From Octopus sinensis (taxonomy: Eukaryota): a stretch of 64,000 nucleotides of DNA. Shown one piece after another: positions 22,685 to 59,750 of the stretch. The translations under genes were made by a program, and so were the position numbers. Under the pieces are notes generated by a model. It was not told where the DNA came from. It was given only the letters and a program-made list of their open reading frames with translations, and ran no database searches. Each line of letters opens with the position of its first letter. The stretch's first letter is position 1. Where the stretch lies: assembly GCF_006345805.1 (NCBI RefSeq), contig NC_042998.1, forward strand, positions 40,796,001 to 40,860,000, read 5' to 3'.

Positions 22685-22703
22685 ATGAAAGTAACAGTGA
22701 AAG
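22685..22703 (+). CDS. Candidate alternative first exon of the dystrophin-like gene (MKVTVK + phase-1 G), or an upstream UTR exon
   Basis: GCCATC-ATG context and consensus donor AAG|GTAAGA at 22704. Same phase as the 41416 exon. Confidence 0.35.
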
Positions 22704-23364
22704 GTAAGAAACCTGTATGATTTACACCTGTCATTTGAAAACGTTAACTCTTGACTTCTCTATGAAAAAATGCTGCTTTCTTGTCAGTGTCTATGGTTTT
22801 AACATGAAATAGTTTTCCTCATTGAGTTTTGATTGTTTTATCGTCACTTTATTGTCATTTAATAACATAAATATTAGCACGTGTTTTGTTTATCGCTTCT
22901 TAGATGAAAGTCACTATGGTGGTTACAACGGGGACCAATATATACAATTATAGTCGCATTTTAAATCAATCTTTTACACTGTGGCCATTATGTTGTCGAT
23001 TGTCTGATAGTCATATCAGCCAGTTTTAATTACTTTATATATAAGAATATTATTTTTACTGCACATCAATACATAATGTTTTTCTCCGCCACCTCCGGAA
23101 ATTTTCTTTATTTGTAAATTATCAGTCACATTAATTTCAAATTTTAAAATTATTTTTTATTTTTTAGAAATCTCCAATTATTTGGTAGTATGTCGAAATT
23201 CCTTTACTACAAAATGTTAAAAAGTTTTTGTTTTTTCATTTTTGTAACTTTTTTTAACTTCTCGATCATAAATGTTATCACTCCTTTATTTGATAGGGAA
23301 AAATTAATTTTGATTACTATGATTTTTAAGCACTAAATTTAATTGCAACGGTGGTTGCAGTTCT

Positions 23365-23722
23365 TTATCTTTCTTTTACTTGTTTCAGTCATTTGACTAT
23401 GGCCATGCTGGAGCACCGCCTTTAGTCGAGCAAATCGACCCCAGGACTTATTCGTTGTAAGCCTATTACTTATTCTATCGGTCTCTTTTGCCGAACCGCT
23501 AAGTTACGGAGACGTAAACACACCAGCATCGGTTGTCAAGCGATGTTGGGGGGACAAACAGACACACATATATACGACGGGTTTCTTTCAGTTTCCCTTT
23601 ACCAAATCCATTCATAAGGCTTTGGTCGACCCGAGGTGCCACTTGCCCAAGGTGCCACGCAGTGAGACTGAACCTGGAACCATGTGGTTGGTAAGCAAGC
23701 TACTTACCACCCAGCTACTCCT
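23365..23722 (-). mobile_element. Near full-length tRNA-derived SINE (octopod-type family)
   Basis: Minus-strand head GGAGTAGCTGGGTGGTAAG (A box), GGTTCAGTCTC (B box), CCTTGGGCAAGTG core and A-rich tail. Many related copies in the window. Confidence 0.85.
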
Positions 23723-26700: not shown

Positions 26701-27012
26701 TCAAGGTGTTAATTTTGTTTTATGTAGAATCATCAGCCACTGTAACAAGCAAACATGACTAACTCACGGCAACGAGTTATATTTAATTCTCTCGTTCTTT
26801 CTCTTTCCTAAAAGAAAACAAAAAAACTTTTTCATAAAAATTTCTGTAAGAGGGTATGAAAATTTTGATTCGGGAAAAAATTGTATCCGACATAGTGATC
26901 CGAGCAAATACATTCAATTAAAAATGTAATATTTCTTTTTCTAATGTCGTAAATAACACACACATACGTACATACATACATGCATACGTACGTACATACA
27001 TTTGTATATGTG

Positions 27013-27046
<34 letters not shown>

Positions 27047-27189
27047 TATACACACACACATGCATGTACCTTTATTTAATGTTAGTCTGTATTCAGTTTG
27101 TATTGCAATAGATGGCATATGTTAATTGTAGTTATTAACTTGCATCACTTATCTAATAATCTATTACAAACTTGAGTTTAGAGAATAAG

Positions 27190-27207
27190 TGTGTGTATAT
27201 ATATGTA

Positions 27208-27266
<59 letters not shown>

Positions 27267-27341
27267 ATCTATATATCTATCTACCTATATCTATCTATAT
27301 ATCTATATATCTATCTACCTATATCTATCTATATCTATCTA

Positions 27342-27412
<71 letters not shown>
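27190..27412. repeat. Compound microsatellite (TATC)n/(TA)n
   Basis: Directly visible. Confidence 0.95.
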
Positions 27413-27416
<4 letters not shown>

Positions 27417-28023
27417 GTCTGTATACACACGTGTAGCAGTGTATTTTAGCTTGAAAACATTCCTAATTTATAGTCCACTAAGCCCTACACTTTGCCTTGG
27501 TTGGTTTCAATATACGATACTGTTTGTTACCGATGCAACTTAGTTAATTAGATATTGATTTGTTTTGTGTAAAAGATGAGTGCTTCGATCTAAATTAGGT
27601 TAAGAAAAAAAAATTAGAAATGCCCTTAAAATATATTTCCAACAATTTGATTTATATATAAAAAAAAATTAAATCAAATCGAAAAATGATCTCAGTGCAA
27701 ATGCTAATCATTTGATAATTTTATAGTTTAAACAGTTTTTGAATGCAACATGATAGAATATTTAGTTCGCATGATAGTATACTGTTAAAGCTATTTGTTT
27801 CTTATAAGTTCAATCGAATTGCCTATTATTTTGTTTCCTACGTTCTGCTACTACCGTCTGACTGTTTTCAATCGAATTTTCTACTTGATCTATGTCTTTT
27901 TCGTTTGTGTGTGATTATTTTTATTCTTAAATTTTATTTTGCACATAATGACAACTTTTGATTGTAGACGCAAACAGCAGTTGGTGGTGGTGTATGTTGT
28001 GTGTACAAACACGCACACCAAGG

Positions 28024-28024
<1 letters not shown>

Positions 28025-28095
<71 letters not shown>

Positions 28096-28482
28096 TATAT
28101 ATACACACACATATAAATATATATACACACACACACATATATGCACACACATATATGCACACATATATGCACACATATATGCACACACATATATGCACAC
28201 ACATATATGCACACACATATATGCACACACATATATGCACACACATATATGCACACACATATATACACACACATATATACACACACATATATACACACAC
28301 ATATACACACACACATATATATACATACACTATCTATATACACACATATATACACACACACACACATATATATATACACACACATAAATATACATACATA
28401 CATAACATATATGTATATACATACACACACACATATATACACACACACACACACACATTATATATACATACACACGTGTGTG
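28025..28482. repeat. Compound (TA)/(CA) microsatellite with a higher-order 14-bp unit ATATATGCACACAC
   Basis: Directly visible; explains the HTHIY/CVYI ORFs. Confidence 0.95.
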
Positions 28483-28604
28483 TGTGACAATTAGTTGGTT
28501 GTCATAATAAACTCAATATGGGATACCGGGGCTGAAGTCTGCAGCAGACTTTAGCCCCAGTTTCCGAAACTGAGTTTTATTATGACAACCAACTAATTGT
28601 CACA
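28483..28604. repeat. 122-bp hairpin (perfect 34-bp outer arms plus inner GGGGCTGAAGTCTGC/GCAGACTTTAGCCCC stem)
   Basis: 28483-28516 is the exact reverse complement of 28571-28604. Confidence 0.92.
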
Positions 28605-29442: not shown

Positions 29443-29476
<34 letters not shown>

Positions 29477-29539
29477 TGTGTTTTCTGTATATAATGTGGA
29501 TGTGTGTATGTAAGTATAGATACATACATATTTAAAGAC

Positions 29540-30714: not shown

Positions 30715-32142
30715 AACTTGGCAATGCCCGGGAATGAAATTGTTCCTTATATTTGCTTTATAGAAATTTGTTATTCTAAATTGAATTTATTCTTCAATTG
30801 GGAAATCATTTCTGAATTCATAATACAAAGAAAAATAATAATTATAATGAAAAATTTTATATGCACAGTGTTGTTCTGGAAAAAGTTTAGGTTCATGTTC
30901 ATTCACAAATGCAGCCAGGTTTGTGATGTCATTATTTGTCTTTCTTGCTATGTCGCTTGAAGTTAAATCACTAATTTGACAGTTTGCTTTTGGCAATCTG
31001 GAGCCAGACTCTTGCAAATTTTTGCCTCCCATGACCAAAACTTGATCCTTAATTTCAATCAGTGCTTAGTTAAAAATTGTTTCAGAGAACTGAATATTGA
31101 TATCTGGGTTTGCCTGTTAAACTGCATACTTTAAGTCCTCAGCCATGTCCTCGCAATGTTTCATCCAAAGCTGTAGGGGACTGCCAAGTTGACACATGTT
31201 CAGTATAATTGCAAAAAGGTTACGGAGTTTCCTTGGAGAATCTGATACTGATGCTTCAGTCAATGAAAGGTCCCAATGTTCATCATTTTCAAAAAAAAAA
31301 ACATTGTTGTTATTATGCTTCTCTATAAGTTTCACACACATGATCTATCCTCCTTTAATCTTGGAATGATCTGGGACCACGTACTTCATGCAAAAGGAGA
31401 CGTAATTATTTCTACAGGTGTAATACTTGGGTAATTGTGGGTAAAGGAGTTTTCTTGCATCTTCATTACTTGACACAACTTAAAAAAAGGCAGTAAAGAC
31501 ACTTTCTTTTGGAGAAAGTGCTTGTTGCAAGGCTGTTTGTTTTGTAAAGATAACCCTGTGATCATTCTCTTGATGGACTCTCAGATGAATGATAGCTGGG
31601 TGCTTTGCATGAGTGGGAAAATTGAAGATGCCCCAGAAAGCTTCATTGGTACTGATATGTCTTCCTCTGTCATACTGCGCATCCTCATCATTTTTATTTA
31701 CCTGCTGACTGCCATTCTGCATAAGAGTGTATGTTGCAGCATCTAAATCTTTGTTTATATATTTGCAAACATACTTAATAGAGTTAACAGAGTTACAGAA
31801 TTCAACATTGACTCTGGTTACCTGTACTTGTCTTCACTGTAGAATACCGATTGTCTGCATCTACCCCGACTCGTCTTGTAGAGTGTGAGAACATTGTTCT
31901 TGGAAACTTTTTCGATAATTAAAATAGGGGTTAAATGAAAAAAATGAGTTACTTGAATATGTTCACGATAGTAATTGAAATAAATAGCAATTGTGGAACA
32001 CCCCACGCATGCACACACATACACACAGAATATCAAGCATCAGATGAACTGGCTGTGTGTGTGTGTGTGAGAGAGAGGCAAAGAGAGAAGGGGTATTGTC
32101 ATGTATACGTACATACATAAATATGCATACATCTTTTTTGTA

Positions 32143-32174
<32 letters not shown>

Positions 32175-33567: not shown

Positions 33568-33570
<3 letters not shown>
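33285..33570 (+). mobile_element. RTE-LINE 3' end / RTE-tailed SINE-like fragment
   Basis: GGTTGGCGTTAGGAAGGGCATCCAGCTGTAGAAAC ... GGACGTTAAATGATGATGATG tail, with two ~60-bp internal tandem units. Related copies at ~37655, 38690, 40240, 51890, 52540 (minus) and 57370 (plus). Confidence 0.75.
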
Positions 33571-33611
<41 letters not shown>

Positions 33612-37587: not shown

Positions 37588-37645
<58 letters not shown>

Positions 37646-39560: not shown

Positions 39561-41278
39561 AGAAGAGACAGAAAGGTGAGAGACAACATTCTGCATTTGA
39601 AAAGGTTTGCATGAACATTTGCCAGATATGCTATATAGTTTCATATATATTTCATCCTGCATCTGATTTACCATCATTCATTCACTTCACACTTGCTATG
39701 TCTACCAAATGAAGAAAGAAGAGGGTGTAGCATAAACCATTGCATACACAGAGATAAAATAACAGCAGTAATTAACCCACTAGCAAGAACATTTGTCATA
39801 TTTCTAATACAAACATACTAGCTAAGCCTTTTTTATATTGTATTGTTGCTGCTTGTGAGCTGTTGTTGGCAGGAGGGAAGGGGCAGAAATGCAAGAGCGT
39901 TTTCCATACAGCTATCTGGTATAAACGGTTTCCATAAGAGAGACTTCCTGTATAGGTTGTGGGGTGGGATGGGAGGGCACACCACAAACAGCCAAGCTGT
40001 ATGGCTACACTGTGACTGAGTCACAGTAATGGGGAGGAAAGATATATCTGTTCATAGGCCAAAATGAAACTAATATGGAAAAAACAAAATGAAGAGGCAA
40101 AAACAGCACATATTTACTTGGATTAATTAACATAAATAATATTTAACACTTAGCTTAAAATAGTGAGGCTGTAGACATGGTAGAAGCAATTTGAATGGAA
40201 TAAAATGATGCTAAAATTAAAAACAAAGAAAAGAACAATCATCATTTAATGCCTGCCATCCATGCTGACATGGGTGAGATGGGTTGACAGGAGCCAGCCA
40301 GACAGAAGCCTGCACCAGACTTCTGTGTCTGTTTTGGTAGATTTCTACAGCTGGATGCCCTTCCTAACACCAACCACCCAGCAGAGTGGACTGAGTGCAT
40401 TTTAAGTGGCACCTGCACTGACAGGGTCACCAAGTAACTTGCATTATGAAGTTGCATAGCATTACCTTCTATTCTTTTAATATATATACAGCTTTATGCA
40501 TGGATGCATGCAGCACACACAAACTAGAAGTCCCATGAACGAAACAGGATTGTTTTCCAAAATGGAGGTGAACACCTTTCTCCATGTGATCAGCTTGAAA
40601 ACTTAAGATACTTGGATATTTTCCCACTCTTCATAACATGAAACCAATGATAGCCTTAATTCACAAATAAAGAAATTATTTATCCACCACTTGAGCAGTT
40701 ATTCCAATGTTCTACTTTTACATACATATATATATTGTTTACATTTTTCTGAACTTGATTCTGCTACTACTTTATGGCTGATTATCCAAATGGAAAAGCA
40801 ATGTATCTAATAATATTAAAATGTCCAAAATTGCAAAACTTAACCAAATAATAAAATTTTAATTTTTAAGTTGTCAGCTTCATCTTAGGAGATGGAACCA
40901 GTTTTAATAGCTATATCTCGCGTGTTTCAATCTCTGATTATCATTGTTTTATTAATGGGTAGTACCAAACAGGATTCTGGCTTGAACCATTTATTTCTAA
41001 ATCAGTTGCATTATTACCCTTAGTTTAAGATAAAATTTTCTCATTTGAATCCAGTGTAGGACTGTCTACACATCCAAGAATAGATACTTGATGACAACCA
41101 AGTGATCAGACTATTTGAAACTATTAAAAATGCTTTCATGTTTAAAGATATGGTTAACAGTCACAAAATTGACTCATTTCAAATGTTTTTAGACATTTAT
41201 CAAACTCATTTTTGAAATTGAAATAACTTATTTAAATGATTGTTGTTTTACAGTGTGCTTATTTTCTTTTTATTCTAG

Positions 41279-41415
41279 GTCTTTGCATTGTAGGTTACTT
41301 TTTGATAGATAACATCTTATCTATGGCCCTTGTTTTTTGAGGATTTTATATAATTGTGGATTTACACTACTGAGTTGGAAAAAATTTAATACTGATTAAT
41401 TGTCATTAATTTGAC
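41279..41415 (+). other. 5' UTR part of the ATG-containing exon of the dystrophin-like gene
   Basis: Polypyrimidine acceptor TTTTCTTTTTATTCTAG|G at 41278 (alternative AG at 41253). In-frame TAA at 41407-41409 upstream of the ATG. Confidence 0.55.
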
Positions 41416-41488
41416 ATGGAGAAATCTATGACAGAAACATTCCCTGAAGAAGATGAGGAATTTGGGCAGAAGATTAAATCACGTGCTG
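41416..41488 (+). CDS. Dys: First coding exon of a dystrophin/utrophin orthologue (MEKSMTETFPEEDEEFGQKIKSRA + phase-1 G)
   Basis: EEFGQKIKSRA-(D) resembles human utrophin NEFSDIIKSRS-D and fish dystrophin DEFGEIIKCRS-D (recalled from memory, not aligned). The phase-1 donor CTG|GTAAGA falls where that family splices to the ERED/EHND-VQKKTF exon. Downstream exon not in window. Confidence 0.72.
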
Positions 41489-41604
41489 GTAAGAAATAAT
41501 TTTTTTCTTTTTCTTCATTTGTATACTTTGAGATTTTATTTTGGATAACTTTTTTGTTGCCCTTATATCATTATTTGGTTTCACAAATTAATATTCAGGG
41601 AGAA

Positions 41605-41666
41605 GGCTGTCTACACCTATTTCAGGCTTGCATGTGGCTGGTGAGGCTGAAATAGAATTGGCAGCC
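41605..41666 (+). other. Intronic stem-loop of pre-miRNA size
   Basis: GGCTGTC/GGCAGCC basal stem, CTATTTCAG/CTGAAATAG 9-bp stem, CTTGC/GTGAG apical stem and ~9-nt loop. Confidence 0.4.
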
Positions 41667-43939
41667 ACTGTAGCAGCTGCAAATGAAATTCTATTCTTAG
41701 TTCAGTGCTACTATATCATGGTTTTTACCTCTGTCTCCTTTTGTCCAGAGAAGAATTCACCTTAGGGAGGTGATTTTGGTAAATTGTCCTACTTAGTACT
41801 GCGCTGCATCTTCAGTAGCATGGTCTTGATAATGATCTCTTCATGTTTGAGGACTTCAATATTAGTAACAAATCACTCCAATGGATATTGAAGAGAGTGT
41901 AGAGGTAGTGCTGTTGGAAGTAAGAGAATGCAAGCTCTACTTTACAAATATTCCTTCTTGGGAATATTTTGCAAGGCATAAAGATTTCCTGATCATAGTA
42001 TCAAACATTTTGATAAGGTTTACAAATATCACATAAGTCACATGTCCTGTTTCTTACATTTCTCTTGAAGCTACCTGAGAATAAATATCATATCAACTAA
42101 CTAAGCTTATGAAAAGGTGTTATAATCACATTGAAAGATATATGCAAACTTATTTTTCACTAATTGAAGTGGCAACTACTGTTCATGTGTTCCTGAGAGC
42201 CAGATTTGGTTCTTAGTTTTTCATTCTTTCTTAACAAAGAATTCTGTCAACAATAAATTTGTAGGTTTTCTTTCTCTCTATTCCAATTTAAAAGTACTGC
42301 GTGATAAACTTCTCTATTGTTATATATTGAAATACATATCACCAGATATTCACTTCTTTTAGGTTGCAGCTGCAAACATTACTATACTGTTTCCAATTAA
42401 ACAACACAGTATGGTTCCAACTTTATGAAGGGAAGAGCAATCCTTTGTTGGTCTAATTTTAATCTTATATTTAAAAGCAATTTGCTCGACCATACAAAAA
42501 TGATGCTCTGTCACTTAATCTCAGTAATCATTATGTATCTATAAATTGGCATACCATCAACTATTACATTGTGCAGGAACTGTTAGGTTCCACTTGCACT
42601 ACATGACCCTAAAGTTTGTACATTAATAAAATGTTTTGATGAACTGCTTTATCAGCTTGTGAATACATTTCAAGTCCAAGTTTACTGCTTTTTTTTGCTT
42701 TTAATATTTTTTTATATTTTCCTATGTATGTATGTATAAAATATACAATTATACAGTATGTGTGTGTGTATAATGTATATGTATGTGCATATGTGTATGT
42801 GTGGGTATTTATGTGTGTATATATATATATATATATGTGTGTGTGTATATGTAAAATGAACCTGTTGTATAGCCTTTGGGTTAGATATTTTCTAGATTTA
42901 GTTTGGAAATTGTTTCATGTAAGCGTATTTATATCTCTAAGTAGGTGTTATAATTTAATGTAAAGCATCTTGGAAGCATAAGAAAGAATGTGCAAGCTTC
43001 TGCTGGAATGTGCCTTTTTATTTGTTTTTAATTCTTTTTAAGGAAGGGTGTTTATTCTTTATATTATATAATTTTAAAAATTAATAAAGAATACTAATTT
43101 GGCTAATTATATTTTAATGAGATTTTAAATTGTAATTTGACACTTCTGTTGATTGTTAAGGAAAGGAAAAAGTGATAGATGAAGTAGGAAATTCAATATT
43201 TAGTTGTTCATATAATGTGAAATGTCGTATGGACAATGATATTCAAATGAAAGGTTATTCAGTGGTTGCCAGTAATTAGAGCATTGGTACAAAGTGAAAA
43301 AAGACTGTGGCATACTTCACTAAAATAAATGTAACACAGGTTTGAATGAATTGATTGATTAGATCTGTAACCCTTCTGTATAGAGAAAAATGTATAGGAA
43401 CACAAGTTTAATTAACTACATAATGAATTTTTTTAAATGTTTAATTGTTTTGCAATGAAATAAACTAGATAGAAACAATTAAAAATAATTTAGTTGTGAT
43501 TGTTTTGTGAAAGGCTTCATTTAGACATTAAAATTCTGTCTTGTGTGTATGAACATTGAAGAACATTAAATTTGTTTTATTCTTTAATTTAATGTCAACT
43601 AGACAGAATTTAGTGCAAATATGTAGAAATGTAATGCATATTTCATTTGTTTTTATGCTTGTTTCTCTATAATAGTATGGGTTAGGTGGATATATTATTG
43701 AGGTATTGTGTCTATCCTGTCACCTTTATCTACCTGTTTTCAAGTAAGAGATCTCTAATTTCAGACATCTTCAAATTTTGAAAGGCACAAAGCCAGTGGA
43801 TGATTTTTTTAAAGTGGGGAAATAGCAATGTCACTACTTATCTAGCTTAACAGTTTATGGAGAAGTGCAAATGTAAACACACATATAAGTATGCATACAC
43901 ACCACATACATACACACAGACAGAGAGACACATACACAT

Positions 43940-44075
43940 ATGACAGGCTTCTTTTAGTTTCTCTTGACCAATTCTACTTACAAGGCTTGGTCAGCTGTAG
44001 TTAGAAGACTCTTGTCCAAAGTACTGTGCAGTTGTGGGATTGAACTTAAAGCGACATGATTGGGAAGCATGTTGC
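43940..44075 (-). mobile_element. Degenerate SINE head
   Basis: Homologous to 23570-23720. Confidence 0.6.
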
Positions 44076-44589
44076 TAATACTAAAATTTGGAATCTATTT
44101 TTCTTTTTGTGGATATTTTAAATTTTGCAAAAACAATAATCTGTACTGCAAAAATGTTTTGGCTAATGCACAAGTCCTACCTAAATAACTTTTAGTGCAT
44201 TTCTGGTCTTTGGAAAACTGAAGAATGCTATTAAATCAACACAGTAAAGTACTTTCCAATTATCCACAGAAATCAGACAATTAAGATTAGATTGATGGGT
44301 GCATTAAAGAGTGTTTTATATAATTTATAAATCTGACTCTGAAAGGGAAAATTTTAAACTTCATTGTACATTAAGAAGAAAGAGGAATGATAGGGGGAGG
44401 TTAAAAAGATTGAAAGCATTATACAGGTGTTAATTAGGTAAAGTTGATATATTGTTAGAGAGGCAAAACAAGGAAGAAAGAGGCACAAAAGAAGGCTGAG
44501 TAGTATTCATTGTGTTCATATGTTTTTGCATATGTTATGCTCATAATAGAAAATACACTCACCTGTATAGAGACATAGGCACATTATAT

Positions 44590-45130
44590 AGGCATGGCTG
44601 TGTAAGAGGTATGCTACCCCACCACATGGTTCCAGGATCAGTCCTACTGAGTGTTGCCTTGGGTAAGTGTCTTCTACTATAACTCTGGGCCAACTAAAGC
44701 TTTGTGAGTGAATTTGGCTGATAGAAATTGAATGAAACCCATTGTATATTTGTATATAATAATAATAATGAAATTATTGTTTACAGTGCTCAGGTGCACC
44801 ACAACTTATCAAAAGTGCGTATAAATCATATGCAGTAATGTACAAATGTCTGGGAAGTGGACAGTGTATGAGTCAGATGCATGCTTGCGTGTGTATGGAG
44901 GGGAGAAAAGAACACATATCTATGTATGTGTTACTGTTTGTTCCCCACTACTGCTTGACAACCAGTCTTGGTTTGTTTACATCCCTGTAAGTTAGCAGTT
45001 CAGCAAAAGAGACCAATAGAGTAAGTACCAGGCTTAAAAGTAAGTGCTGTGGTCGATTCATTTGACTAAAGCCCTTTATGGCAGTGCCCCTGCATGGTTG
45101 CAGTTTAGTAACCAAAACATGTAAAAGATA
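44590..45130 (+). mobile_element. SINE interrupted by a CR1 3'-end fragment
   Basis: Head (TGGCTGTGTAAG...CAGTCC...CCTTGGGTAAGTG) at 44590-44750. The remainder (GCAAAAGAGACCAATAGAGTAAGTACCAGGCTT) resumes at ~44920. Confidence 0.7.
44755..44910 (-). mobile_element. CR1-type LINE 3' UTR fragment with (ATT)n tail
   Basis: Reverse complement of ~57100-57255. Confidence 0.8.
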
Positions 45131-45999
45131 TTTGTTTTTACTACTCTGTCATTGGACTATTGCCATACTGGGGTGCCATCTTCATGAATTTAGTCAATCA
45201 GTACTTAAGTCTGGTATTTATTTCAGCAACATAAAAATAATGCTTGTTTTCAAGCAGTGTAAATATAAATACTAATACACACACATATATTAATAAATAA
45301 GTTTGCACAGTAAATTCTGCTTTATGTATAATTTAATATTCATTGAGCTCCTCTATGAGCCATACCTGTATTTAGGTTGTGTACTTACACCTCTCCCACT
45401 TGCACATAAAGTTGAGGTGTCCTCTTAACTTCACATCTAAAGTTTTCTAGATGACATGACAACCTCTATGTGCTGGTGCTATGATAAAATACATCCAGTA
45501 TCCTCTGGATAAACTAAATCTGTTTTATTCTGCCTTTGTGTGTGTGTGCACGCGCGCGCGCGTGTGTGTAGAAACCAAAATTGAAGCATTAGAGCCAGAT
45601 ATGATTCTGTGATTACTTTTAGAGAAGAGTGATTCTAAATAAGGGCTAACTCAGCCTGTGGAAATTCATACAACCTATACTAGCTTGGAAAGCAAATTAT
45701 AAAAAGATGATTACATAGGTTTTTAAAAATGTTGTGTTATGAATGCACTTAATGGATCAGAACATGATAGGAAGTAACTGATAATGAAACAATTAGTGGA
45801 AAGTGGTATTAATTCAGCTTCTGATAACAATAGATAATGAAATGGTATTGATTAAGCTATAAATCATAATTTGATAAATTTTTAAATTGTTTATACTTAC
45901 ATGTAGTAATAGCAAAATTGGGCATTTTATATGTATGCATTTTTTTTCTTCATGCTAAAAAAATTATTTCATAGTGTGTGTGTATGTGGGTGGATGCAA

Positions 46000-46140
46000 T
46001 GTAGTTGTGTGTTAAGCTTCTCAATCGTTTGTTTTCACATTCAGTTCCACTGTGTATCATCTTGGGCTACTGACTTCTACTTTAGTCTTGGATCAATCAA
46101 AGCCTTGTGAGTGGATTTGGTTGACAGAAACCAAAATGAT
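46000..46140 (+). mobile_element. Degenerate SINE head
   Basis: AAAGCCTTGTGAGTGGATTTGGTTGACAGAAAC segment shared with other copies (also ~47480-47610). Confidence 0.6.
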
Positions 46141-46559
46141 GTACTGCACTTATCCATGCATAATGCTCCTTATGTATAATATGCAGTTTTGTTTTTAATG
46201 AGAAAAGAAATGTGTCCACAGTTAATGCATAGATTTGTTATTATTGCATGTATCGCTTTAAAAGATAAGAATTTTGTCAAATTATGGTTTTTATTTAAAT
46301 TAATATCTTTGCATTATCCACTATTGTCAGACTTCAAATTAACATCACGTTTGACATATTGTCCACTTGGATTTGTTTCATCAACATCAGTTTCTCCTTG
46401 CCATATAATATCATCTTCTACTCTACCAAATATTTTAGTAATTTGGCAGTTTTGAAACTTCATGTTGCATTATCTGTGAGATGGCCACAAAATGAATCTA
46501 ATATAAACATTGATTTTGGTTTAAGCAAAGCACCAGCATGATTCCAAGCCAAATGATTC

Positions 46560-46850
46560 TATTCCTCAACCATATTACTGCATTTTCAGTCCTTTTCATT
46601 AGCATGAGTAGTAATATATTTTCATATTTAATTCCTTTATGCTGTATTTTACATTTGGATATAGTATGAAGAGGCAGTTTACTACCATTAGAAGTTATAG
46701 CTAGTAATACCTGTACAATGCTATTTTCCATTGCTACCTGCACAAACAGTTTTAGTCTCACCTCAGTCAAGTGTCATATCAGCTGGTATCTCAAAATATA
46801 CTGGCATGTTTTTCTTAATTTGGTATAGAATAAATTTTTGTTCATAGTCT
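46560..46850 (-). pseudogene. pogo-like DDE transposase remnant
   Basis: VQVLLAITSNGSKLPL resembles the DDE_1 TV.L...ADG.KLPP motif; YFEIP lies upstream. Confidence 0.5.
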
Positions 46851-47620
46851 TTAGGCATATGTTGACACATAGTATTTCTACAACATACTGATAGAATAAC
46901 TATTTATAAAACATAGCAATTGAACATAGCCTTGAACTGAGAATTAGTAGCGAAATGTTTTAGTTTTAAAGCTTGAATATGCATCATTTCACAAAAATCA
47001 CAAAAATCTTTTTCAGGTTTGCTTCCTCTTCTTTATGCTACAAATGAATAGTGAATTCATTTAATTCCAAATTAAACAGTAGTGTAAATCTTAATTACCA
47101 CATCATTAAAAAATTGGGAGATAATTTGTTGCTGTGGTTATCTTTCAATCATTATTGTTACAATTATCTACCGTATACAGTGCTGGCAAAAGGTTTAATA
47201 GTTGTTCCTGGCCATGTTGCAGTGAATATAGGTCTACAACAAGCCAATCAGTTCTCATAACATTATGCATGTATTGATGATTTTTTTTTCTGTAGGATAG
47301 AAATATCTAATTAGATACTTTTCTTAATCCCAACTTAATCTGAGTAAAATGTGATTTAAAAAACACTCAACATTGTGAGAATTTTACTGTTTGTTTCTGC
47401 TTGTAAGTACTTTATTGAAGACAGTTTTTGTTGTTAACTGATAAATTTATTGATTAGATTTCATAAGTGCAGTATGATTTCTTGGCGAGCAGGTTCTGGA
47501 TTCAGTTCTACTGCATGACATCTTCAGCAAGTGTCTTCTACTCTAACCTCAAGTCAGCCAAATCAATGCAAGCAGATTTGGTAGATGGAAACTGAAAGAA
47601 GCCCATTGCATGTGCATGCA

Positions 47621-47654
<34 letters not shown>

Positions 47655-47664
47655 CATACATATA

Positions 47665-49342
47665 CTAGCAGAGGGACCCGGTGTTGCCAGGAAAGAAATT
47701 TTCCCTTATACATTGGGAGAAAAAAGCAAAATATGTTCTATAGAAATTTGTTATTCTAAATTCAATTTATTCTTTAGTTGGGATACAATTTTTTCTTTAA
47801 CTGGGAAATCCATGCTGAATTCATAATACAAAATAAAAATAATAATAGTAATAAACAAAAATACAAAATTTACTGTTACATATGTTGAAAGAAATTATGT
47901 AAGAGCTTCTGGGTAAACAACATACTTTGATTTTTGGTTTTGAGCATAGACAAATAAGTCTTGCACACTACCTACCCTGGAGCAACCAACAAAGTTGACC
48001 ATGAGAAAAGCAAGCCAGTAGATTTTAAAGACTGACCTTGAGTTTTATTAATAGACATTGCAAAGCAAAGTTGCACTGGGAATTGTGTTCATTTGAACTC
48101 AAAGGGCATGTCTGTTGGTTTGATTGGAATTCTTGGAACGAAAACCTCTTCCCCAGAGGTACCTCCAGTGATGATGGTAGCTTCTATCACATTAGGTGAT
48201 AATGTCTTCACAATCAACCTTGTCCCATTGCATAATTTAGGAGGATCTAAATTTCTTAGAAGCATTATTGGGACTCTTACCTTCAGAAAGAGTTTATGTG
48301 GAGGAATTCCTGGTGACTCAAGAGAATTAAGGAATTCTGTTGTTAATGGACAACTTGATTTTCATGAAGGACTGAATTAATTAATTTTTACTTCTTAATG
48401 ACTGTTGGTATCTTATTAATTCATGGTTAATTCTTGCTTCTGTCTCATTTTTTTGGAGTAAGAATTGCCCTTTCACAGAACCATTTATGTGAATTATAAT
48501 TATTACTTAAGTCTGGTTCTTCAATTCAGCTGGGGAATTCACCATGAAAGCAATATGAGCCAAACTGATATCACCATTCCCATCAAATGGTACTTTCCCA
48601 TTTCCTAATTGGAGGAGCCAGGTTGAAAACTGTTTTGCATCTTGGTCGCCATGTAATGAAGTTTGCATGTTAGTATTGGAGAATTTCAGTATTTTATTCC
48701 ATAGGTGTGAAGACTTAATGCATGCTTTTATTTCATCAGATCTTGTTTGTCTCAGAATGACTGGTAATGTCTGTCTGAAATCTCCTGATAAAACTAATGT
48801 AACTCCTCCCATAAATTTATTGTTACTGCTGATGTCCTGTAAGGTGTTACCAAGAGCTTCTATTGCACCTCAATGTGACATGGTGCATTCATCCCAAATG
48901 ATAAGGTGGCATTGGCACAACACTTCTGCTGAACTTGAATCTTTGCTTATGTCACAACATAGACTTTCACTTGTGACCAAGTGTAATGGTAATTTAAAAG
49001 CAGAATGAGCTGTTCATCTTCCTGGGAGAATGGTGGCAGCAAAGCCAGACAATAGTACAGCAACTGCAATTTTTTTGTTTTTGTTGCCTTACTTTGGAGA
49101 GAAGCAGTGTCACAAATGTTTTACCTGTGTCACCAGAAGCATCAATAAAGAATTCCTCTGCTTTTTTCTGTCGATTGTGGAACACCGCATGCATGCGTGC
49201 ACACACACACAGATACATACAGTATCAAACATCAGATGAAATGGACGTGTGTGTGTGTGTGTGTGAGAGAGAGAGTGAGTGAGTGAAGGAGTTTGTTGTC
49301 ATGTATAAATACATACATAAATAAATAGGCATACATTTTGTA

Positions 49343-49373
<31 letters not shown>

Positions 49374-50000
49374 CACTTAGACATCACTCTCTCTCTCTCA
49401 CACATACATACATAGAAAAAAGATATATGCATATATATTTATGTATGTACGCATACATGACAACACACTCCTTTACTCACACACTCCTTTACTCACACAC
49501 ACACACACCATACATAAATGTATACAAATGTACTTGCAAAAACACGTGTATGTATGTGGCTGAAAAAGAAAATAAAAAAAATTTACGTAAAATAACAAAG
49601 TGTGCGAGTTCCAACAAAATAATGCCCATATTTTTGGGAGGTCCCATGTTGAATTGCAAAATTTTAACGTGATATTTGTGTAATAAAGAAATCAACCTGG
49701 AGTGTGTGTGTATGTGTGAGAGAGAGAGAGTAAGAACATTGCAAACAATGAGTGAGGTGGACATGGAATGAAAAAATTGTATCAATAAAAGCATGTTGAA
49801 AACTATCTTATACTGAATATTTAAATTTGTGAACTTAGTAAATATTTCTTTCAGTAATTTATCATAGTTGTTTACAAATAGTGAAATAAAACTTGAAATG
49901 GAAACATTAAAATTAGACAGGAACTGACTTTGCCGTTTTTATGTCAATACCAGAAGTTGACATTGAGAAACTTTTTTAAAGAAGTGAATCTAATGTAGTA
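47665..50000 (-). mobile_element. Internally deleted Helitron retaining PIF1-helicase fragments
   Basis: Minus 3' end hairpin CCTGGCAACACCGGG then CTAG|T at 47668-47665. Helicase motifs FIDASGDTGKTF (Walker A-like), IWDECTM, GGVTLVLSGDFRQTLPV, FPVQLCFAMSINK and CSRVG. Confidence 0.9.
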
Positions 50001-50129
50001 ATAATCTAAGGTATATTTGTAGAGAATTTCATTTAAAAATATCCACTTTCTTGAAAGTTGAGATGAATTGAAGTAGACTCCGGTGAATTTTCAGAAATTC
50101 CTCACCCCCTCCAAAGACACTCTCCCCGG

Positions 50130-50285
50130 CTTCTTTCGGTTTCCATTTATCAAATCTACTTGCAGGATTTGGTCAGCCTGAGGCTATAGTAGTAGACACT
50201 TGCCTAAGGTGCCACACAGTGGGACTGAACCCAGAACCATGTGATTGGTAAGCAAACTACTTACCACACGGCCACTCCTACCTGG
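50130..50285 (-). mobile_element. SINE head
   Basis: Minus GGAGTGGCCGTGTGGTAAGTAG ... GGTTCAGTCCCACTG, same family as the 23.4 kb copy. Confidence 0.8.
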
Positions 50286-52229
50286 TCATGCAGAAATATT
50301 ATCCTACTTGGAAACAGTTGAGGGTTGGCAGCAGGAAGGGCATCCAGCCATGGAAAATCCACCCCAACAAATTCTGTCTGGTCCATATGAACATGGAAAA
50401 ATGAACAATGATGTTGATGATAATTTTCATTTTATGTGCATACTGGCTTGTGTTATTTTTTATGCTTATATTTTACTTTTCCTGTTATGTAGGGTTTTAA
50501 TTCTAGCTGTTCTTATATTCAAATGAATAATTATTTGAAAGTTAGCATTCATTTTGTGTTCTAAAACTTTTAGATGCTCCCTAATGTACAGTATTGATAT
50601 ATTGCGAGTAGTTGCAGTTAATTGACTGAGAAGAGAAAATCTAGAATGTAATGTGGCAGCACATTCAAGGTATCAAGGTTTTGTATACAGTACATGACTA
50701 TTTCCTTTTCCCTATATTTTCTGCTGAGAAGTAGAAGGAAAATTATTATAGCTTTTATATGGAAGGTGAGAGTTAAGTCACATTGAATAATTGCTCAGGC
50801 TACAAATGTGCTACATAAATCGCATGGTTGATTAGGCCAAGAATATGTATATTACACTGTAATGGAGATACTATAATCTAAAAATATTAGCTGTCAAAGA
50901 TTTCATCAAAATAATTACTATAAATGCACTTCATCCTCATGAAATGCTAATTTCTTTATCTTCACATTCATTGCTTTAAAGAGAAAATATAACTGTTGTC
51001 TTGTTGCATTTTTTGTTAAATTGGGTACAGTTTTGTTGACTTGGGTGCATTTACAATTTTTGGTATGAGAATACTGATGAGTTCTGGTTATCATGGTTTC
51101 AGAATATTTATTTGTGCTGTATTATTCTCTTTTTATTCATTTACTTCAAATATAACAGTGCTCATTCTATCAATGCATCCTGACAGGATAGAAGTCCTAA
51201 ATCAAAATGCATAAAGTTGAATATAACTTAGCTACTGTATGAGTTAATGGTAAGGATGATGTTCTCATTAAACCATTGATGAATAATATTGATCTGAAAG
51301 TGTAAGAAATATAGAGAAATCCAATACCTTTTTGTCTGTGCAGCTACTAAGTGCACACGTTTAGGTACCCATTGTGGAAAAAAAATCATTGAGTGGTCCA
51401 CTTGGTTCTTGGTTATTTCATGCAATTGTATATTAATCTTGTACAAGTGAAGTATTATGGAACTGAAAGCTTCTAGTACAGGTTGAATTGTATTCAAACT
51501 CTCTTGTTAGAAGTAAATGATGAGATATGCTGGATAATTATTGGGCATAAAAACCTAAAAAAATAGAACTAGAGACTTAATGGTTTAAAATAAATGATAT
51601 TGAGAGATGACAGCTTCAATATCTAGCAGTACTGTGTTTGTTGTGAGTATCTGGAATTACATGAACTGTAAAGACAACTACAAAAGGTATTGAGTCATTT
51701 ACTAAAAATTGAGATTCTGTCTTGAGGTGCCAAAATTGTCAGAGTACTGGGTGAGACAGCTAATGAAGGCTGAATTTTCCTTTTTTTTTTTTGTTCAGTT
51801 TGTTGCCTATTTTTTATTTTATAGTTTGTTGCCTATTTTTTATTTTATAGTTTGTGTCTTCTTTATATGCTATCATTCTGATGATGATCATCATCATTTT
51901 ATGTCCACTTTCCATGCTGGTATGGTTTAGATGGTTTGACAGAACCTAACAAATCAGAAGACCACACTTGCTCCAGCATCTGTTTTAGCATGATTTCTGT
52001 GGTTGAATATTTTTCCTGTAACTATCCACTTCTCATTGTGCACAAAGTACATTTTTCTTATAGCACCAGAATTATAGAGGTTATCTGGCCATCAGCAAAA
52101 CTAAATAGTCCCTTTGATTTTGTATTGTCACTGCTTAATTTGCCAGCTACATTATAAAGTGTACTGGATACATTTTTTTCATGGTACCAGCACTAGTGTA
52201 GTGTCTTGCAATTCATGGCGATTGTGGAT

Positions 52230-52515
52230 CTTTTCAGATTCTTGCTCAATCACTTCATCTTAATGTCTTCTCTAAGTTTCTTGAGCCTATCAATGTGCAA
52301 CTTGCTGCTCACACTATAGCTACCTTCCAGAAAATCAAGAGTAATGACATCTTTCTTGTCTCCCAAAACAATCACCCTGGCTTTGTGCATGTTACTGGTT
52401 CTTGAACTTCTTGGGCCTTTGAGAAAGGGCATAACACCATTCTATGGCCTGAGCCTTCATTTCCAGGTCATAAAGATACACTCGTGCTTCATCTTCTGTC
52501 ATCAAATGGTTCCAG
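52230..52515 (-). pseudogene. Mariner transposase remnant
   Basis: MTEDEARV..YD.EMK.Q..EW and V...DKKDVITLDFLEG....Y...LKKLREDI resemble the DD34D catalytic region. Confidence 0.65.
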
Positions 52516-53069
52516 TACATATATATATTTAATCATTGTTTTAACGTCTGCCTTCCATGCTGGCATGGTTGGGACGGTTTTACAGGAGTTGGCCAAGCAG
52601 AAGCCTGCACCAGACTTCTGTGACTGTTTCGGCAGAATTTTTACAGTTGAATGTCCTTCCTAACACCAACCACCCAGCTGAGTGGACTGTGTGCTTTTTA
52701 CATACCACAAGCACAAGTAAGGTCAGTTTTGGTAAGGTTTCTTGCAGCTGGATGCCCTTCCAAATGCCAACCACTTTGCAGTGTGGACTGGATGCTTTTT
52801 AAGTAACACCTGCAGTGACAGGGTCACCAAGTAACCTGAAAGAAAAAAAGTCTTTTGGGAGGGGAGAGGTATTGGAGGAGGTGATCTTGTGTCAAATGAT
52901 GAAAGGTTATAATGAGACAGACAGAAACAGGTGTCTTGCTGTAGAGGAGGTACATAGTTACCCAACTGGAGAAAGAGAGAGAAAGAGAAAGAGATCAGGA
53001 ATGAGGACATATATATATATATAATCTTCATCCATCTCATAATGTCAAGACAAAGGTATACACACACGC

Positions 53070-53600
53070 ATATGATGGGTTTCTTTGAGTTTCCATTTAC
53101 TAAATCCACTCACAAAGCATGTGGTTAAGAAACTTGCTTCCCAACCATGCCGTCGTGGGTTTGGTCCTGCTGTGCAGCACCTTGGGCAAGTGTCTTCTGC
53201 TCTAACTTGAGGCTAGCCAAAGTCATGTGAATGACATCACATGTTGATTGTAAACAAGTATTACCAACATACAAGTGACATTGTTCATTACCAGTCTTCC
53301 ATGAAAAACCTGTCTGGCTATGGGAAATATTATTTTACTTGGAAACAACTGAAGGCTAGGTGACCCTTTCTATGGTCACGTGGGTTAGCCAGAATTTGTT
53401 GTGGTAGGTTTTCTACTGTCAGATGCCCTTCCTGTCAGCCACTGTTACCTGTTTCCAAGTAAGGTAATATTTCCCCATGACCTGACATATTTTCACAGAA
53501 GATTGGAAATGGAAGACACTGCTTGCATTGTGATGATACTTGCTTACAACTATCACATATGTCAAGGCAAGGAGACAGTAACACAGTAGATGAAAACTGC
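53070..53600. mobile_element. Cluster of SINE fragments in both orientations
   Basis: Minus fragment ~53070-53118, plus head ~53120-53360 and minus fragment ~53420-53590. GGAAATATT...TTACTTGGAAACA occurs in both orientations. Confidence 0.6.
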
Positions 53601-54399
53601 AAAGAGCCATGTGTGTGTGTATATATGTATATGTGTGTATGTATATATATGTATGTGTGTGTATATATATGTATATATATATGAGATTAGTTATTTGTAG
53701 GGTCCATTAGAATCAAGGCATTTTAATATTAAGGACACCAAGCGAGGGTTGAGAACTGCACATCTGTATGTATGCCATATACAAACACTCATATACCCAA
53801 GCATATACTGACATGCTCATGCACTTAGATTTACATGCACATGCAAATATACACATATGTACAGGTTTACATGTACATGAAATTATATACCAATGCACAC
53901 CTGCATGCAGTTACATGATCCAATAAAAGTACCGGATATGTGTGTATGCACACACTCATGTGTATATATATATATATGTATGTACATGTGTGTGTATATA
54001 TTTCTGTACATATTTGTGGTGTAGTGAATGGTTTGCAATGTTTGCAGTCGTGTATGCTTCTCAAGAGCAGGGCTCATTAGTCACCAACGGGGCTGCAAAC
54101 GCAAAATATAAGTTAGTCTGAGAGTGCACAATGTTCCTGAAGGTTTGCAATGGTCTTCCTAGTAATGAGAGGATGGCTATCATCATGATGTATGTGTGTG
54201 TGTGTGTGTGTGTAGGTATATGTATATATGTGGGTGTGTGTGTGTATGGGTATGTATATATATATATGTGTATGGGTATGTATATATGTGTGTGTGTATG
54301 AGTATGTATATATATATATATATATATGTATATGTATCAGGTCATCCCATTAGTTCTGTCCAATTTTACCTTTTTTAAAATTGAATGAAGTTTAATAGT

Positions 54400-54640
54400 A
54401 ATCCTGCAGTACTCTTTCACCACAACTTTCTGTCACTCTTTCTTCCTGTTTCTGTTGTACCTGTATTTCAAAGGGTCAGCCTTATCACACTCTGTGTCAT
54501 GCTGAATCTCCCCGAGAACTATGTTAAGGGTACACATGTTTGTGGAGTGCTCAGCCACTTGCATGTTAATTTCACGAGCAGGCTGTTCCGTTGATCAGAT
54601 CAACTGGAACCCTTATTGCCATAACTGATGGAGTGCCATG
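54400..54640 (+). mobile_element. SINE-like fragment of a second family
   Basis: GAGTGCTCAGCCACTTGCATGTTAATTTCACGAGCAGG block of SINE-core character between microsatellites. Confidence 0.4.
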
Positions 54641-54654
54641 AATATATTTATGTA

Positions 54655-54691
<37 letters not shown>

Positions 54692-54789
54692 TTCGAATCC
54701 GGAGACAAGCAAGATATATTTAGAAGAAAAATAGGAAAAGGAAGCAAACACTCATGGTATTATATCATTTAAATCTTCATATCTCCTCT

Positions 54790-55690
54790 TTTAAGGGGTT
54801 TGATAATGTTGCCATCAACAAAACTACGAGCAAAGAACTGTAAATGGATTTGGAGGAAGAGGAGGACTTCACCAAGTTATTTGAGAAAGACAAACAGCCC
54901 CTGACAAACGAGGATTTGATATAGCTTCACAAGCAGCAAAAGAGAGAAGAAACCGAAGTTGAACCTGAGCTGCATCACTTTACCATTAAGAAAATGCAGT
55001 AAACATTTGCATATATCGGAAAAAGTCTTTCTATAGTTCAAGGATATGTATCCAAATGCTCAACGCTTTTTCCAAGATTATGGGTGCTTTTCACGAAGCT
55101 TTTGCTCCTTATAATGTAATCCTTAAAGCAAAAAAGACTGTTCAAGAAACTCTCAACCAGTTTTTTTAAGTGCATCAAACAACAAAACAGCCAGAGTTAG
55201 CTGTTGATGTTGACAATCCACAGACATCCACATCTGCAATATAAACCACCTAATTGTATGTACGTATTGGTAAATTTAAAATAATTTAGTTTTTCTACTA
55301 TTGCAAAATAATAATAATTACAGAATTTGTTTTTTAAGCTTAAAAAAGGCTTTTATTTTATCAATGCTTATTGCAAACTGCATTCATAAATAAAGTGTTT
55401 GTGATGTACGGTAAACATCACCAAATTGTATTTGGCAATTTAGATAACTTTTTTTTTTACTGTACTGTATTAAAAAATAAAAATTATTTGTTTGTAAGCT
55501 TAAAATAGGTTGTTATTAACCATTTATTATTGAAAATGCATTCATAAATAAAGTACAGAACTGGGAATGGTTATTATCGGTTTAGCCTAGAGACAAGTAA
55601 ATTCAGCCTAGCCTAAAGACAAGTTAATTCGACTTCAGTCAGACTTAAGTCATGTCTCTTGGAACCAATCAACAATGTAGGGTGATGTAT
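54790..55690 (+). mobile_element. Tigger/pogo transposase C-terminus and 3' end remnant
   Basis: FKGFD...DLEEEEDFTKLF...PLTNEDL matches the Tigger C-terminal pattern; GGAACCAAT subterminal motif near 55660. Confidence 0.6.
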
Positions 55691-55693
55691 GCT

Positions 55694-55729
<36 letters not shown>

Positions 55730-56394
55730 GGGAAAACAGATTTTGATTCCTAATACACTCCTGTTTATCATTGTCTTTACCTATAATTTATGAGCATAAC
55801 ATTTTTGTGCATGTTTAAATAAAAGTAATATACTGGTAGTATTTTGGATACTTTTATCCCTTAGACGGTTGTTTTAACCTCTAACTCAACTAACCTTATA
55901 TATATATAGATAGATAGATAGATAGATAGGTAGATATAAATATATAAGTTATATCATATGTAAATGAACATAAGTCTGTTTTTGAAGTGCTGAAATGTAT
56001 TGTAGTACAAGTAGAAAGATATATTTTTCAATGTGTAAGTACTGATAGAACTGCATGTATGTAAATGTCGAACTCCATGTCCTGCTGTTGTAAAGCCATA
56101 ATTCAAAATAATGGCTGTGGGACTAGATTCAAATAATAAATTTTTGTTCATTGATCATTTGTGCAAAAAATTTTCAATTTAAACGAAATATTGTTGGTAC
56201 AGTCTTAAATTTATTTTGCCAACAATTTTTAATTATTTGAATTAATTGTGCAATAAAATTATTCAAATTGTAGTAAGATATATAATGCCTATATCATTCG
56301 AAAGAGAAAAGAATTCTACATAAACTGTAAAAAGTAAAATAATTTTATACAGTTTTGTTAAAGATAAATTAATGAAGGAATCATCAGTCTTAAA

Positions 56395-57258
56395 AAGAGG
56401 TTTGTCACATTTCTAGGACAACACTCTCCACCCTATGAGATGACATCTGGTGTACCACAGGGATCTGTTCTTGGTCCCCTTTTACTTGTTGCATATGTTA
56501 ATGACATAGATGCCAACTTAAAGAATGCCAGCTATTTGTGTTGGACAAAACACATCGCTAAAATTGCCAAGAACACTGAGGGTATCTTGGCATCACTCAC
56601 CAAGTCCTTTGTTAGCCATTCTCCGGCTATCTATCTGCAGCTTTATATAGCTATGGTACGATCTCACCTGGAATTTGCATCACTGGTCTAGAACCCCTAT
56701 CTTGTCCAGGATATTAATCGTCTGGAAGCTGTTCAGCGACGTGCAACCAAGAGAATACCCTCCATCAGGCATTTGTCATATTCTGAACGCCTTACTTCCC
56801 TGGGCATGGACACATTGAAACTCTGACGTCTGGCAGCTGACTTGGCAGACACCCATAAAATTGCTAACCATCTTACAAACAGTAACTCTGAGCACCTTTT
56901 CAAACTCCACCTGTCTAACACCCGTGGACATGGTTACAAAGTCAGAAAACAGCACAGTTCCCATGACTTTCGGAAACATTTTTTCACGCTAAGAGTTGCT
57001 GAAGCATGGAACAGACTGCCGGCATCTGTTGTTAGTTGTTGGAGCACTGCATCCTTCAAAACTTCCATGCTTCCTGAGATTCGCCAACACTACACCTGAT
57101 TTTCCCCCCTCCATACACACGCAAGCATGTATCTGACTCATGCACTGTTCGCTTTCCAGACATTTCTACATTACTGCATATACTTTATATGCACTTTTGA
57201 CAAGTTGTGGTGCACCTGAGCACTGTATACAATAATTTCATTATTATTATTATTATAT
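56395..57258 (+). mobile_element. 5'-truncated, internally deleted CR1-clade LINE
   Basis: SGVPQGSVLGPLL..Y.ND, VRSHLEFAS, LEAVQRRATK, SY.ERL..LG, FFTLRV...WNRLP..VV, then 3' UTR and (ATT)n tail. Confidence 0.9.
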
Positions 57259-58417
57259 TATTAAACTTATTTTGTCCAGTGTGTGTGTATTTATATATAT
57301 AATGTCCCTTGTGTTGTGACAACACACCTGCTTGTCTCTTTGTCACTCTAATTTTCATCCTCTGACACAAATGTGCTGGTGGTATGTTAAAAGCATCCAG
57401 TCCACACTGTAATGTGGTTGGTTTCTGGAAGGGGGCATCCAGCCATAAAATCCCTTCCAAAACTGACACAGTATCCTTGGGTAGATTTTCTACCTGGCCA
57501 ACTCCTGTCAACCATCCTACCCATGCACACATGTTGATGATTATGATGATGATGATGATATATATATATATGTACATAAATAAACACATATGATGAGCTT
57601 TCAGTTTTCATCTATCAATGTGTGTGTGTAAAAATATATATAGTTTTGATTTCTCAGTGGTGTTGGTGTTTTCATTGGAATTGTCTGGGTTGAAGAAATC
57701 AAACTCCACCAAACTTCAGAGTTACTGTCAATAGATTTGACAATGATATGAAACCCTACACTTGTAGTTAGTATTTTATTCTGTTAATATTTTTGTTTTC
57801 ATTTCTATAAAAATACTCATTTTAAATTGTGTGTGTGTGTGTGTGTGCGTATGTGGTGGTGGTGGGGTGTTTGTGTAAATATATATATTTTATAATTTAA
57901 AGAATGTAAAAATGTAAAGTAACTCATTTTTGGCAACTTTATTACATATTTCTTTGAAGTGAAAAATATATTTTAGCTCTTTCTGTGTTACTTCCTCTAC
58001 ATGTAAAAGAGTTGGTACAATCACTACTTCTATACCAGAGGTGCCTTGTCTGCTGCTGTTTTACCAGGGGTGCCTTGTCTGCTGCTGGTGCCTCTCTTTC
58101 TTCATCTATCGTTCTTTCACTCCTCTTCTATAAGATTTTACACTTAACATTTCAGCGAAAATACCTCTATTTTTGCTTATCGTTTGTTGATATCATTTGT
58201 GATGTTACATATCTAATGTTAAGGTGTAAAGTTCTAAGTCCTAAAATTATACAACTAACTTTTACACGTTTTGAAAGATCTCTTCATCATGATCTTATTC
58301 TTAATATACTACATGGATTTAATTTCGTAATTTGTGGATTATTACTTTGGAGAATTGAAGCTTTGGTAGGGGAGATCTGATTCATTTGGATTACCATCTG
58401 TAAATGATTTTGTAACT

Positions 58418-58439
58418 ATGGCAGATGAAGAAGAAGAAA
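58418..58439 (+). CDS. Candidate alternative first coding exon of the dystrophin-like gene (MADEEEE + phase-1 A)
   Basis: Strong Kozak ACTATGG, in-frame TAG upstream at 58367 and consensus donor A|GTAAGT at 58440. Lies in unique sequence; same phase as the 41416 exon. Confidence 0.55.
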
Positions 58440-59750
58440 GTAAGTGTTTCCATGTGTTTATACATTTTTGCTTGCTATATTCCCAACACTGTTTACTATT
58501 TTCTCTGTCCCAGATAAGTGTTATGGTTCTCAAACTTCTTACATCTGATATTTTCTTTTTATATCTGTAGCTATAAAAGAATATTTGATTGAAGAATTGA
58601 AAGTAAAACTTTGCTCTATGTACTCAAAGACAGCAGTTATTAAAAGAAAAACCTTCATTTTATTATTTTATTATCATGTATTCAAAATACATTTAGTAAC
58701 AAAATATATGGAGATTGCTAAAACAGTAAATAAGATATGTTAACATTAATCTTATTTTAAAAACAAAGTAATGTACTTGGTTCTAAAATATATTAGAATA
58801 TTTCTTTCTCATTTTTTTTTCTTTCCCCCTTTCTCAGAGATTAAAAGATGTTCTCTAAAAGTTGAAAAAGTTAAATATGAAATTATAATTTGGATAATTA
58901 TTAATTTGAGTTTTTTAATAAATATAGTTCCATAAATAGATGTTGTTATTTTAATAAATATAGTATATAGTATTCAAGTATAATACTAGTCAATAACAAC
59001 AACAGCAATAATAATAATATTTCTTCTCATAGAAAAGATATGGAAAACTTAATTGCAATGGTCTATGCTTTCCTGTTTGGTATCTTCTTATGGTACTGAT
59101 ACACAGTAACTGTGAAAATCAGACAAATCTTTTAGAATTTAGTAGAAGAACAAATTTATAAATTATTGTGTATATATTGAATCTTTTGAGAAGTTTTTTT
59201 TTCTTTTTAGTTTTATCTTGCTCTACAACTTTGTGATATTTCAAATTGCATGTTCAATTATTTTCCAGTATCGGTATATGAATAACACTTCAAAAATCCA
59301 TTACTCCATCTTCATAATTCATGTAAAAACACAAATATATATTATAGATATTAGTGTAAATAAACTTGTGATTCTTAAAATTGCAATTACTTGTAGCTTG
59401 CAGCTGAAATTTTACCTGTTGCTTTTAATTTCAAGCATAAACAACACTATTAGGAGAAAAATAATTTCACTGGGTCAGTCATTGAATTTGGTGCTTTGAT
59501 CCTATTATCAGGTGTTCAAGTATTTATAAGATAATCTTAATTCAAGTATTTATAAATTTATAGTTGCAACCAAGAAAGTCCTTTGATTGTTGTTCTATAA
59601 GATATTAGCATTTTGGTCTAATTGAGGAACTTCAAGCGGTCAAATAAAAATCTGAACTACTTGCTGAGTACTTGACCTCAGAAGTGAAAAAAAGTAGAAA
59701 TATACCTGTTTAAGAAGAATGATGTTGACCAAAAGATTTAATATGATAAT

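Follow-up and report, generated by a model that had tools for sequence, protein, structure and literature searches.

Two spliced exons at the 5′ end of octopus dystrophin, likely alternative protein starts, one with the sequence of the utrophin actin-binding helix

Introduction

In how many ways does an octopus begin its dystrophin, and are the exons that encode these beginnings kin to those of vertebrates? The question is raised by a stretch of 64,000 nt of the Octopus sinensis genome (G000:C2:40796001-40860000), called here the window; positions counted on past its end are given in window numbering continued. A preliminary description of this DNA took three short ATG frames, each closed in phase 1 by a GTAAG donor, for mutually exclusive first exons of a dystrophin- or utrophin-type gene, joined to a common exon further downstream. 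A layout of this kind is described for mammalian DMD, whose Dp427 B, M and P forms arise from three promoters, their first exons being different and exon 2 shared (PMC2840664). The features of the window that bear on the question are these:

6001-29000, no strand: CpG-retaining domain, drawn from the ratio of observed to expected CpG
22685-22703, + strand: candidate exon A, MKVTVK, recognised by its ATG frame and donor AAG/GTAAGA
41279-41488, + strand: exon B, 210 nt; 5′ untranslated 41279-41415, coding 41416-41488, donor CTG/GTAAGA
58067-58439, + strand: exon C, with its 5′ end at or before 58067; coding 58418-58439, donor AAA/GTAAGT
58440-64000, + strand: 5′ part of an intron that continues beyond the window

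Results

All three frames are present, with their ATGs at 22685, 41416 and 58418 as first described. By itself the pattern of an ATG and a phase-1 GTAAG donor is in no excess over chance: within the window such an open frame is found at 11 of the 58 GTAAG donors on the plus strand and at 18/42 on the minus strand. Exons B and C are raised above chance by evidence from outside the frame pattern.

Is the gene that follows a dystrophin? The 200 kb following the window were searched for exons. The earlier reading had staked itself on the next plus-strand exon being a dystrophin-family calponin-homology (CH) exon, and an exon of this kind, 62 nt long and in phase 1, does come next. It is referred to here as exon 2:

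119715-119776 continued (C2:40915715-40915776; L007:5715-5776), + strand: exon 2, the proposed shared exon, 62 nt, phase 1, 55.7 kb past the window end
from 169403 continued (L012:5403-5495), + strand: exon 3, 93 nt

Among PDB structures, the best matches of exon 2 are to dystrophin (1dxx, 9d58 and 9c3c, residues 12-31). Exon 3 is identical over its 31 residues to P0451, a transcript-derived protein of 3783 amino acids encoded on a 12,092-nt Logan contig that comes from a related octopod and not from this genome. The Pfam domains of P0451 are PF00307 (twice), spectrin PF00435, WW (under its curated cut-off), EF and ZZ, and the protein is 92% identical to the octopus locus over 1773 aligned residues. 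CH and then spectrin-repeat exons succeed exon 3 in the order of mollusc dystrophins, and the rod matches those of molluscs and fish in a comparison of the exons on either side of a central stretch of about 410 kb. A genome search located the EF-hand family PF09068 on the plus strand at C2:41497237-41499783, ~580 kb beyond exon 2, with the genome's remaining two EF-hand loci both on a different contig, and the C-terminal exons are 92-100% identical to P0451 residues 2971-3497. Octopus exons compared with dystrophin models of Octopus bimaculoides are 96-100% identical. The locus thus displays the tandem CH actin-binding domain, the spectrin rod and, on the same strand, the WW/EF-hand/ZZ region of the dystrophin/utrophin family, and it is the animal's dystrophin gene. 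A genome search with the CH family gave at least 50 matches, none of those listed being at the dystrophin locus, whose exons are small; a protein search with a single rod exon gave no match within a length range that excluded full-length proteins. Invertebrates that have been studied are reported to possess a single dystrophin gene each (PMC1790709).

Which of the donors are used? Contigs from four runs (X1, X9, X11 and X21) were mapped on 41150-58750, an interval that has B and C inside and A outside; the runs consist of contigs only, their RNA status is a guess, and they carry no tissue labels and no start sites. Two contigs, X11 record 9 and X9 record 25, span 41277-41488 with extra letters at each end: beyond the donor there are 30 in X11 and 11 in X9, and ahead of the acceptor 29 and 50, respectively. 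From X1 comes only a piece internal to B. The acceptor AG at 41277-41278 is used, and the letters before it show that an exon upstream of B exists. Being spliced on its 5′ side as well, B is therefore not a first exon, and the proposal that all three are first exons fails on this point; B is a 210-nt internal exon, second in its transcript, with an untranslated part of 137 nt. As for C, X1 record 8 (2639 nt) begins at 58067, runs with zero differences up to 58439 and continues for 2266 nt, X11 record 15 stops 30 letters beyond the donor at 58439, and X9 holds an internal piece only. None of the C contigs in X1, X9 and X11 has extra letters at the 5′ side, and C has the character of a genuine first exon, with splicing at 58439. 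Contigs leave the genome at both ends of B in two of the four runs and at the C donor likewise in two of four; pieces of B and C occur together in 3/4. In X21 neither exon is among the pieces listed, which does not show absence, and none of the listed holders of the C stretch is recorded as RNA. More than one donor is used, as had been anticipated, since contigs depart from the genome exactly at 41488 and 58439.

P0451 starts with the B peptide, apart from a small indel, and the exon-2 peptide comes directly next, so that the join of B to exon 2 is shown in a related octopod. For C we infer the same join. In X11 the B and C contigs both end at 30 letters, which would fit the merging of the two into one shared exon, an argument that rests on assembly words of 31 letters. 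The preliminary claim of phase-1 start exons on a common exon is thus upheld in part, by the join of B in the relative and by the use of the C donor, and is corrected as to the place of B in the transcript. The 30-letter end common to both contigs also speaks against a different fate for C, namely that it starts a transcript bypassing exon 2, whether a separate RNA or an isoform spliced straight to an exon further on. In favour of such a bypass, none of the database proteins fetched begins with C. We nevertheless consider it very improbable, as the phase of C agrees with exon 2, its start context ACTATGG is strong and acidic N-termini stand on exon 2 in bivalves, gastropods, lampreys and sharks. 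More generally, the peptides of A, C and D (a candidate introduced below) stand at the N-terminus of none of the proteins fetched.

What does exon B encode? The 2488 phase-1 ATG-open donors in the 240 kb upstream of exon 2 were ranked against profiles of N-terminal classes, which were chosen by eye once B had been seen. B ranks first of the 2488 with a mixed profile and again with each of three deuterostome-only profiles (fish utrophin-type; vertebrate dystrophin; amphioxus plus echinoderm), and its deuterostome-profile score is reached by 0/2353 minus-strand controls. Between the N-terminus of P0451 and human utrophin (6m5g_F) the alignment has no gaps, and Phe18, Ile22, Lys23, Ser24 and Arg25 are matched, while the dystrophin chains 1dxx, 9d58 and 9c3c align to P0451 from the exon-2 residue onward only; beta-III-spectrin aligns with part of this N-terminal stretch. 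B alone found no match in PDB, and AlphaFold run without an alignment gave a model of mean pLDDT 38 that was not used. The Phe18/Ile22/Lys23 register ahead of CH1 is present in B. It recurs in 48 of the 166 distinct N-termini fetched (47/1483 in controls); these include sequences from gastropods and bivalves, from Lingula and a nemertean, from arthropods, amphioxus, echinoderms and lampreys, and from models named dystrophin in sharks, a toad and pigeons. Judged by these alignments and profiles, B is homologous to utrophin exon 2A and carries the sequence of an actin-binding helix; for this one exon the earlier alternative of ancestral or convergent can be answered in terms of homology.

The utrophin literature indicates what such a helix can do. 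Utrophin residues 18-33 are reported to form a helix that contacts actin, the substitution I22D brings the Kd up to 38 uM, from 1.8 uM, and the helix is there described as found in no CH1 domain but that of utrophin (PMC7360965). Utrophin that lacks residues 1-27 shows reduced binding, and the flanking region shifts its localisation (PMC6938246). Utrophin exons 1A' and 1A are described as splicing to the translated exon 2A, after which comes exon 3 (PMC6032923).

Exon C ranks 1/2488 against the invertebrate acidic class with a score owed largely to composition. When the profile is made from the short acidic starts of vertebrate models (lamprey, shark, frog, lungfish and bird), its rank is 9/2488, and 5 of the 2353 controls score as high. 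C resembles these vertebrate starts in being short and helix-less, a likeness that does not establish homology, and it is without the tryptophan found in most lamprey, shark, frog and bird dystrophin starts.

Where, then, does the B transcript begin? CpG observed/expected is 0.6-1.06 at 6-29 kb, against about 0.2 around it, and A lies inside this domain. Because octopus methylation is reported to mark gene bodies and largely to spare promoters, intergenic DNA and transposons (PMC9476566), the 5′-most promoter likely lies in the CpG-retaining domain. Candidate A is single-copy in a genome search and has a strong donor and a purine at -3; its frame is also open upstream to an ATG at 22637, and a TATA-like word stands 15 nt before its own ATG. 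Were A to enter B in phase 1, the frame would stop at 41338, before the ATG of B, so the ATG of A would then be that of an upstream open reading frame. We lean slightly towards A being a transcribed exon.

The contrary reading, that A is a chance match of an ATG and a donor in promoter or intergenic DNA and that the leader of B lies elsewhere, for example at donor 8690 or 13072, has an appreciable probability, somewhat short of even. The ATG-donor pattern is common, a promoter-like stretch at 7950-8700 contains donor 8690, and the TATA-like word is too near to serve A. The leader of B has to end in AG, and the window has ten strong plus-strand donors of this kind before B, so that A is one candidate of ten. 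Weighing on the other side, none of the ten but A has GTAAG, and the loss of CpG, which begins at about 28-30 kb, would be easier to reconcile with a start site at 20-26 kb than with one at 8 kb.

Three features of the domain deserve mention in their own right. The stretch 7950-8700 has, besides donor 8690, a minus-strand donor at 8549 that closes a 23-codon ATG frame, and contains words that we take to resemble CCAAT, octamer and GC boxes; it may be the distal promoter of dystrophin or the promoter of an upstream gene. A CpG-rich stretch at 20360-20950 was considered as a unique promoter and set aside, for it is an old dispersed repeat that gave 49 matches, its own copy counted, with identities mostly of about 70-80%; this repeat has retained its CpGs. 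At 14320-18350 on the minus strand lies a non-LTR retrotransposon in a broken state, with frames for endonuclease, reverse transcriptase and zf-RVT.

Might A be a protein start after all? One further candidate enters here:

88497-88539 continued (L004:4497-4539), + strand: candidate start exon D, MAALINRVYVRKTK, 24.5 kb past the window end

The start context of D is strong, its donor follows the consensus and it has a CpG peak of its own; its best profile ranks are 9 and 61 of 2488. The original picture, in which A, B and C each join exon 2 directly, so that the protein has three starts, to which D might add one more, gains from the strong donor, the purine at -3, the single-copy DNA and the CpG-retaining setting of A, and from other molluscs with up to four N-termini, among them a Lys-ending basic class that neither B nor C matches. 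It is at odds with the internal position of B and with the fact that A belongs to no N-terminal class (rank 289 to 2081 of 2488). In addition, the X11 B contig stops at 30, not 29, letters. This counts weakly against the joining of a third exon that ends in G, A or D, to exon 2 in X11, as it is one sample and contigs drop rare forms. We regard three direct starts as unlikely. The top match to the basic class, 6 kb upstream of the window, was rejected, as it falls in an apparent fragment of retrotransposon reverse transcriptase; we presume this identity, in part from a neighbouring frame.

Discussion

Based on these observations, we propose that the window holds the 5′ region of the octopus dystrophin gene and that B and C are spliced exons, likely alternative starts on one exon 2; including the leader and promoter arrangement described here, we put the probability of this model at about 0.75. 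A distal promoter at 6-29 kb would drive a transcript whose leader exon is spliced to B at 41279, with translation from 41416, and a second promoter just before 58067 would drive C. As the C transcript would begin downstream of B, the two exons would be made mutually exclusive by the choice of promoter. Candidate A is most likely the leader of the B transcript, its ATG opening an upstream reading frame; a straight path from A to exon 2 would be possible, unsupported as it stands, and we hold the direct use of A on exon 2 to be doubtful. The B start would give an actin-binding domain with a utrophin-type N-terminal helix, and the C start a short acidic tip in which this helix is lacking. If utrophin is a guide, the B form may bind F-actin more tightly than the C form and differ from it in localisation.

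How does this layout compare with known systems? Mammalian utrophin A, as described in PMC6032923, is like octopus B in having a second exon with a 5′ untranslated part and a phase-1 donor, and the helix aligns without gaps; utrophin A belongs to a vertebrate paralogue, whereas B lies in the single dystrophin of an invertebrate. The Dp427 forms are closer to C, a short phase-1 first coding exon before an orthologous exon 2. Drosophila Dys, an invertebrate dystrophin with multiple starts, has the full-length forms DLP1, DLP2 and DLP3, which are distinguished solely by the untranslated exons and the first exon that codes (PMC2840664); the likeness to octopus is drawn from the layout. Fly Dys thus removes the idea of a vertebrate multi-promoter trait newly met in an invertebrate. 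RefSeq models from bivalves, gastropods, Lingula and crinoids also place two to four N-termini on exon 2 in 14 of 21 species (12/19 molluscs) among the members listed, up to 15 per cluster, and the mollusc N-termini tabulated, all from predicted models, include B-like and acidic classes. The multi-start layout is already known from vertebrates, flies and mollusc models.

What is newer is how widely the helix exon occurs among bilaterians, and that it is paired with a start which is acidic and has no helix. In the literature covered, a partial set with few subscription papers, neither the start exons of cephalopod dystrophin nor a helix exon outside utrophin was the subject of any paper. A proposal, which we judge evenly poised, is that the helix called unique to utrophin is an ancestral cassette exon of bilaterian dystrophin, that a promoter switch between helix and acidic helix-less starts has persisted across animals ranging from molluscs to lampreys, sharks and birds, and that the utrophin A and muscle dystrophin starts descend from two exons of one gene, of which B and C would be living counterparts. 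If the helix-on/helix-off pair is ancestral, the gap in actin affinity between utrophin and dystrophin would have begun as an isoform switch within one gene, and naturally paired starts, B and C of octopus for example, would offer a direct measure of that gap.

The locus also supplies start exons that are missing from the O. bimaculoides models: all nine in the cluster begin at exon 3 or later and are without exon 2 and the octopus start exons. Models P0361 and P0443-P0445 begin in the intron preceding exon 3, at an ATG that is present here too, and look truncated rather than a real isoform. P0446, like many mollusc models, starts after the CH domains; an in-frame ATG stands in the present locus at 196734 continued (L015:2734), and this start may represent a conserved isoform devoid of the actin-binding domain or an annotation fallback.

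A Pfam scan of 124 proteins (122 upstream and window frames picked from 266, one more window frame, and P0451) detected no neighbouring host gene upstream, just retroelement domains and weak matches. Within the window, the frames at 48042-49240 and 31117-31833 are, we assume, fragments of helitron helicase. The segment L022-L033 (120 kb upstream of the window) has a CpG ratio of about 0.2, gene-body-like, and its scanned frames carry no host-gene domain; it may hold a gene with small exons or long introns.
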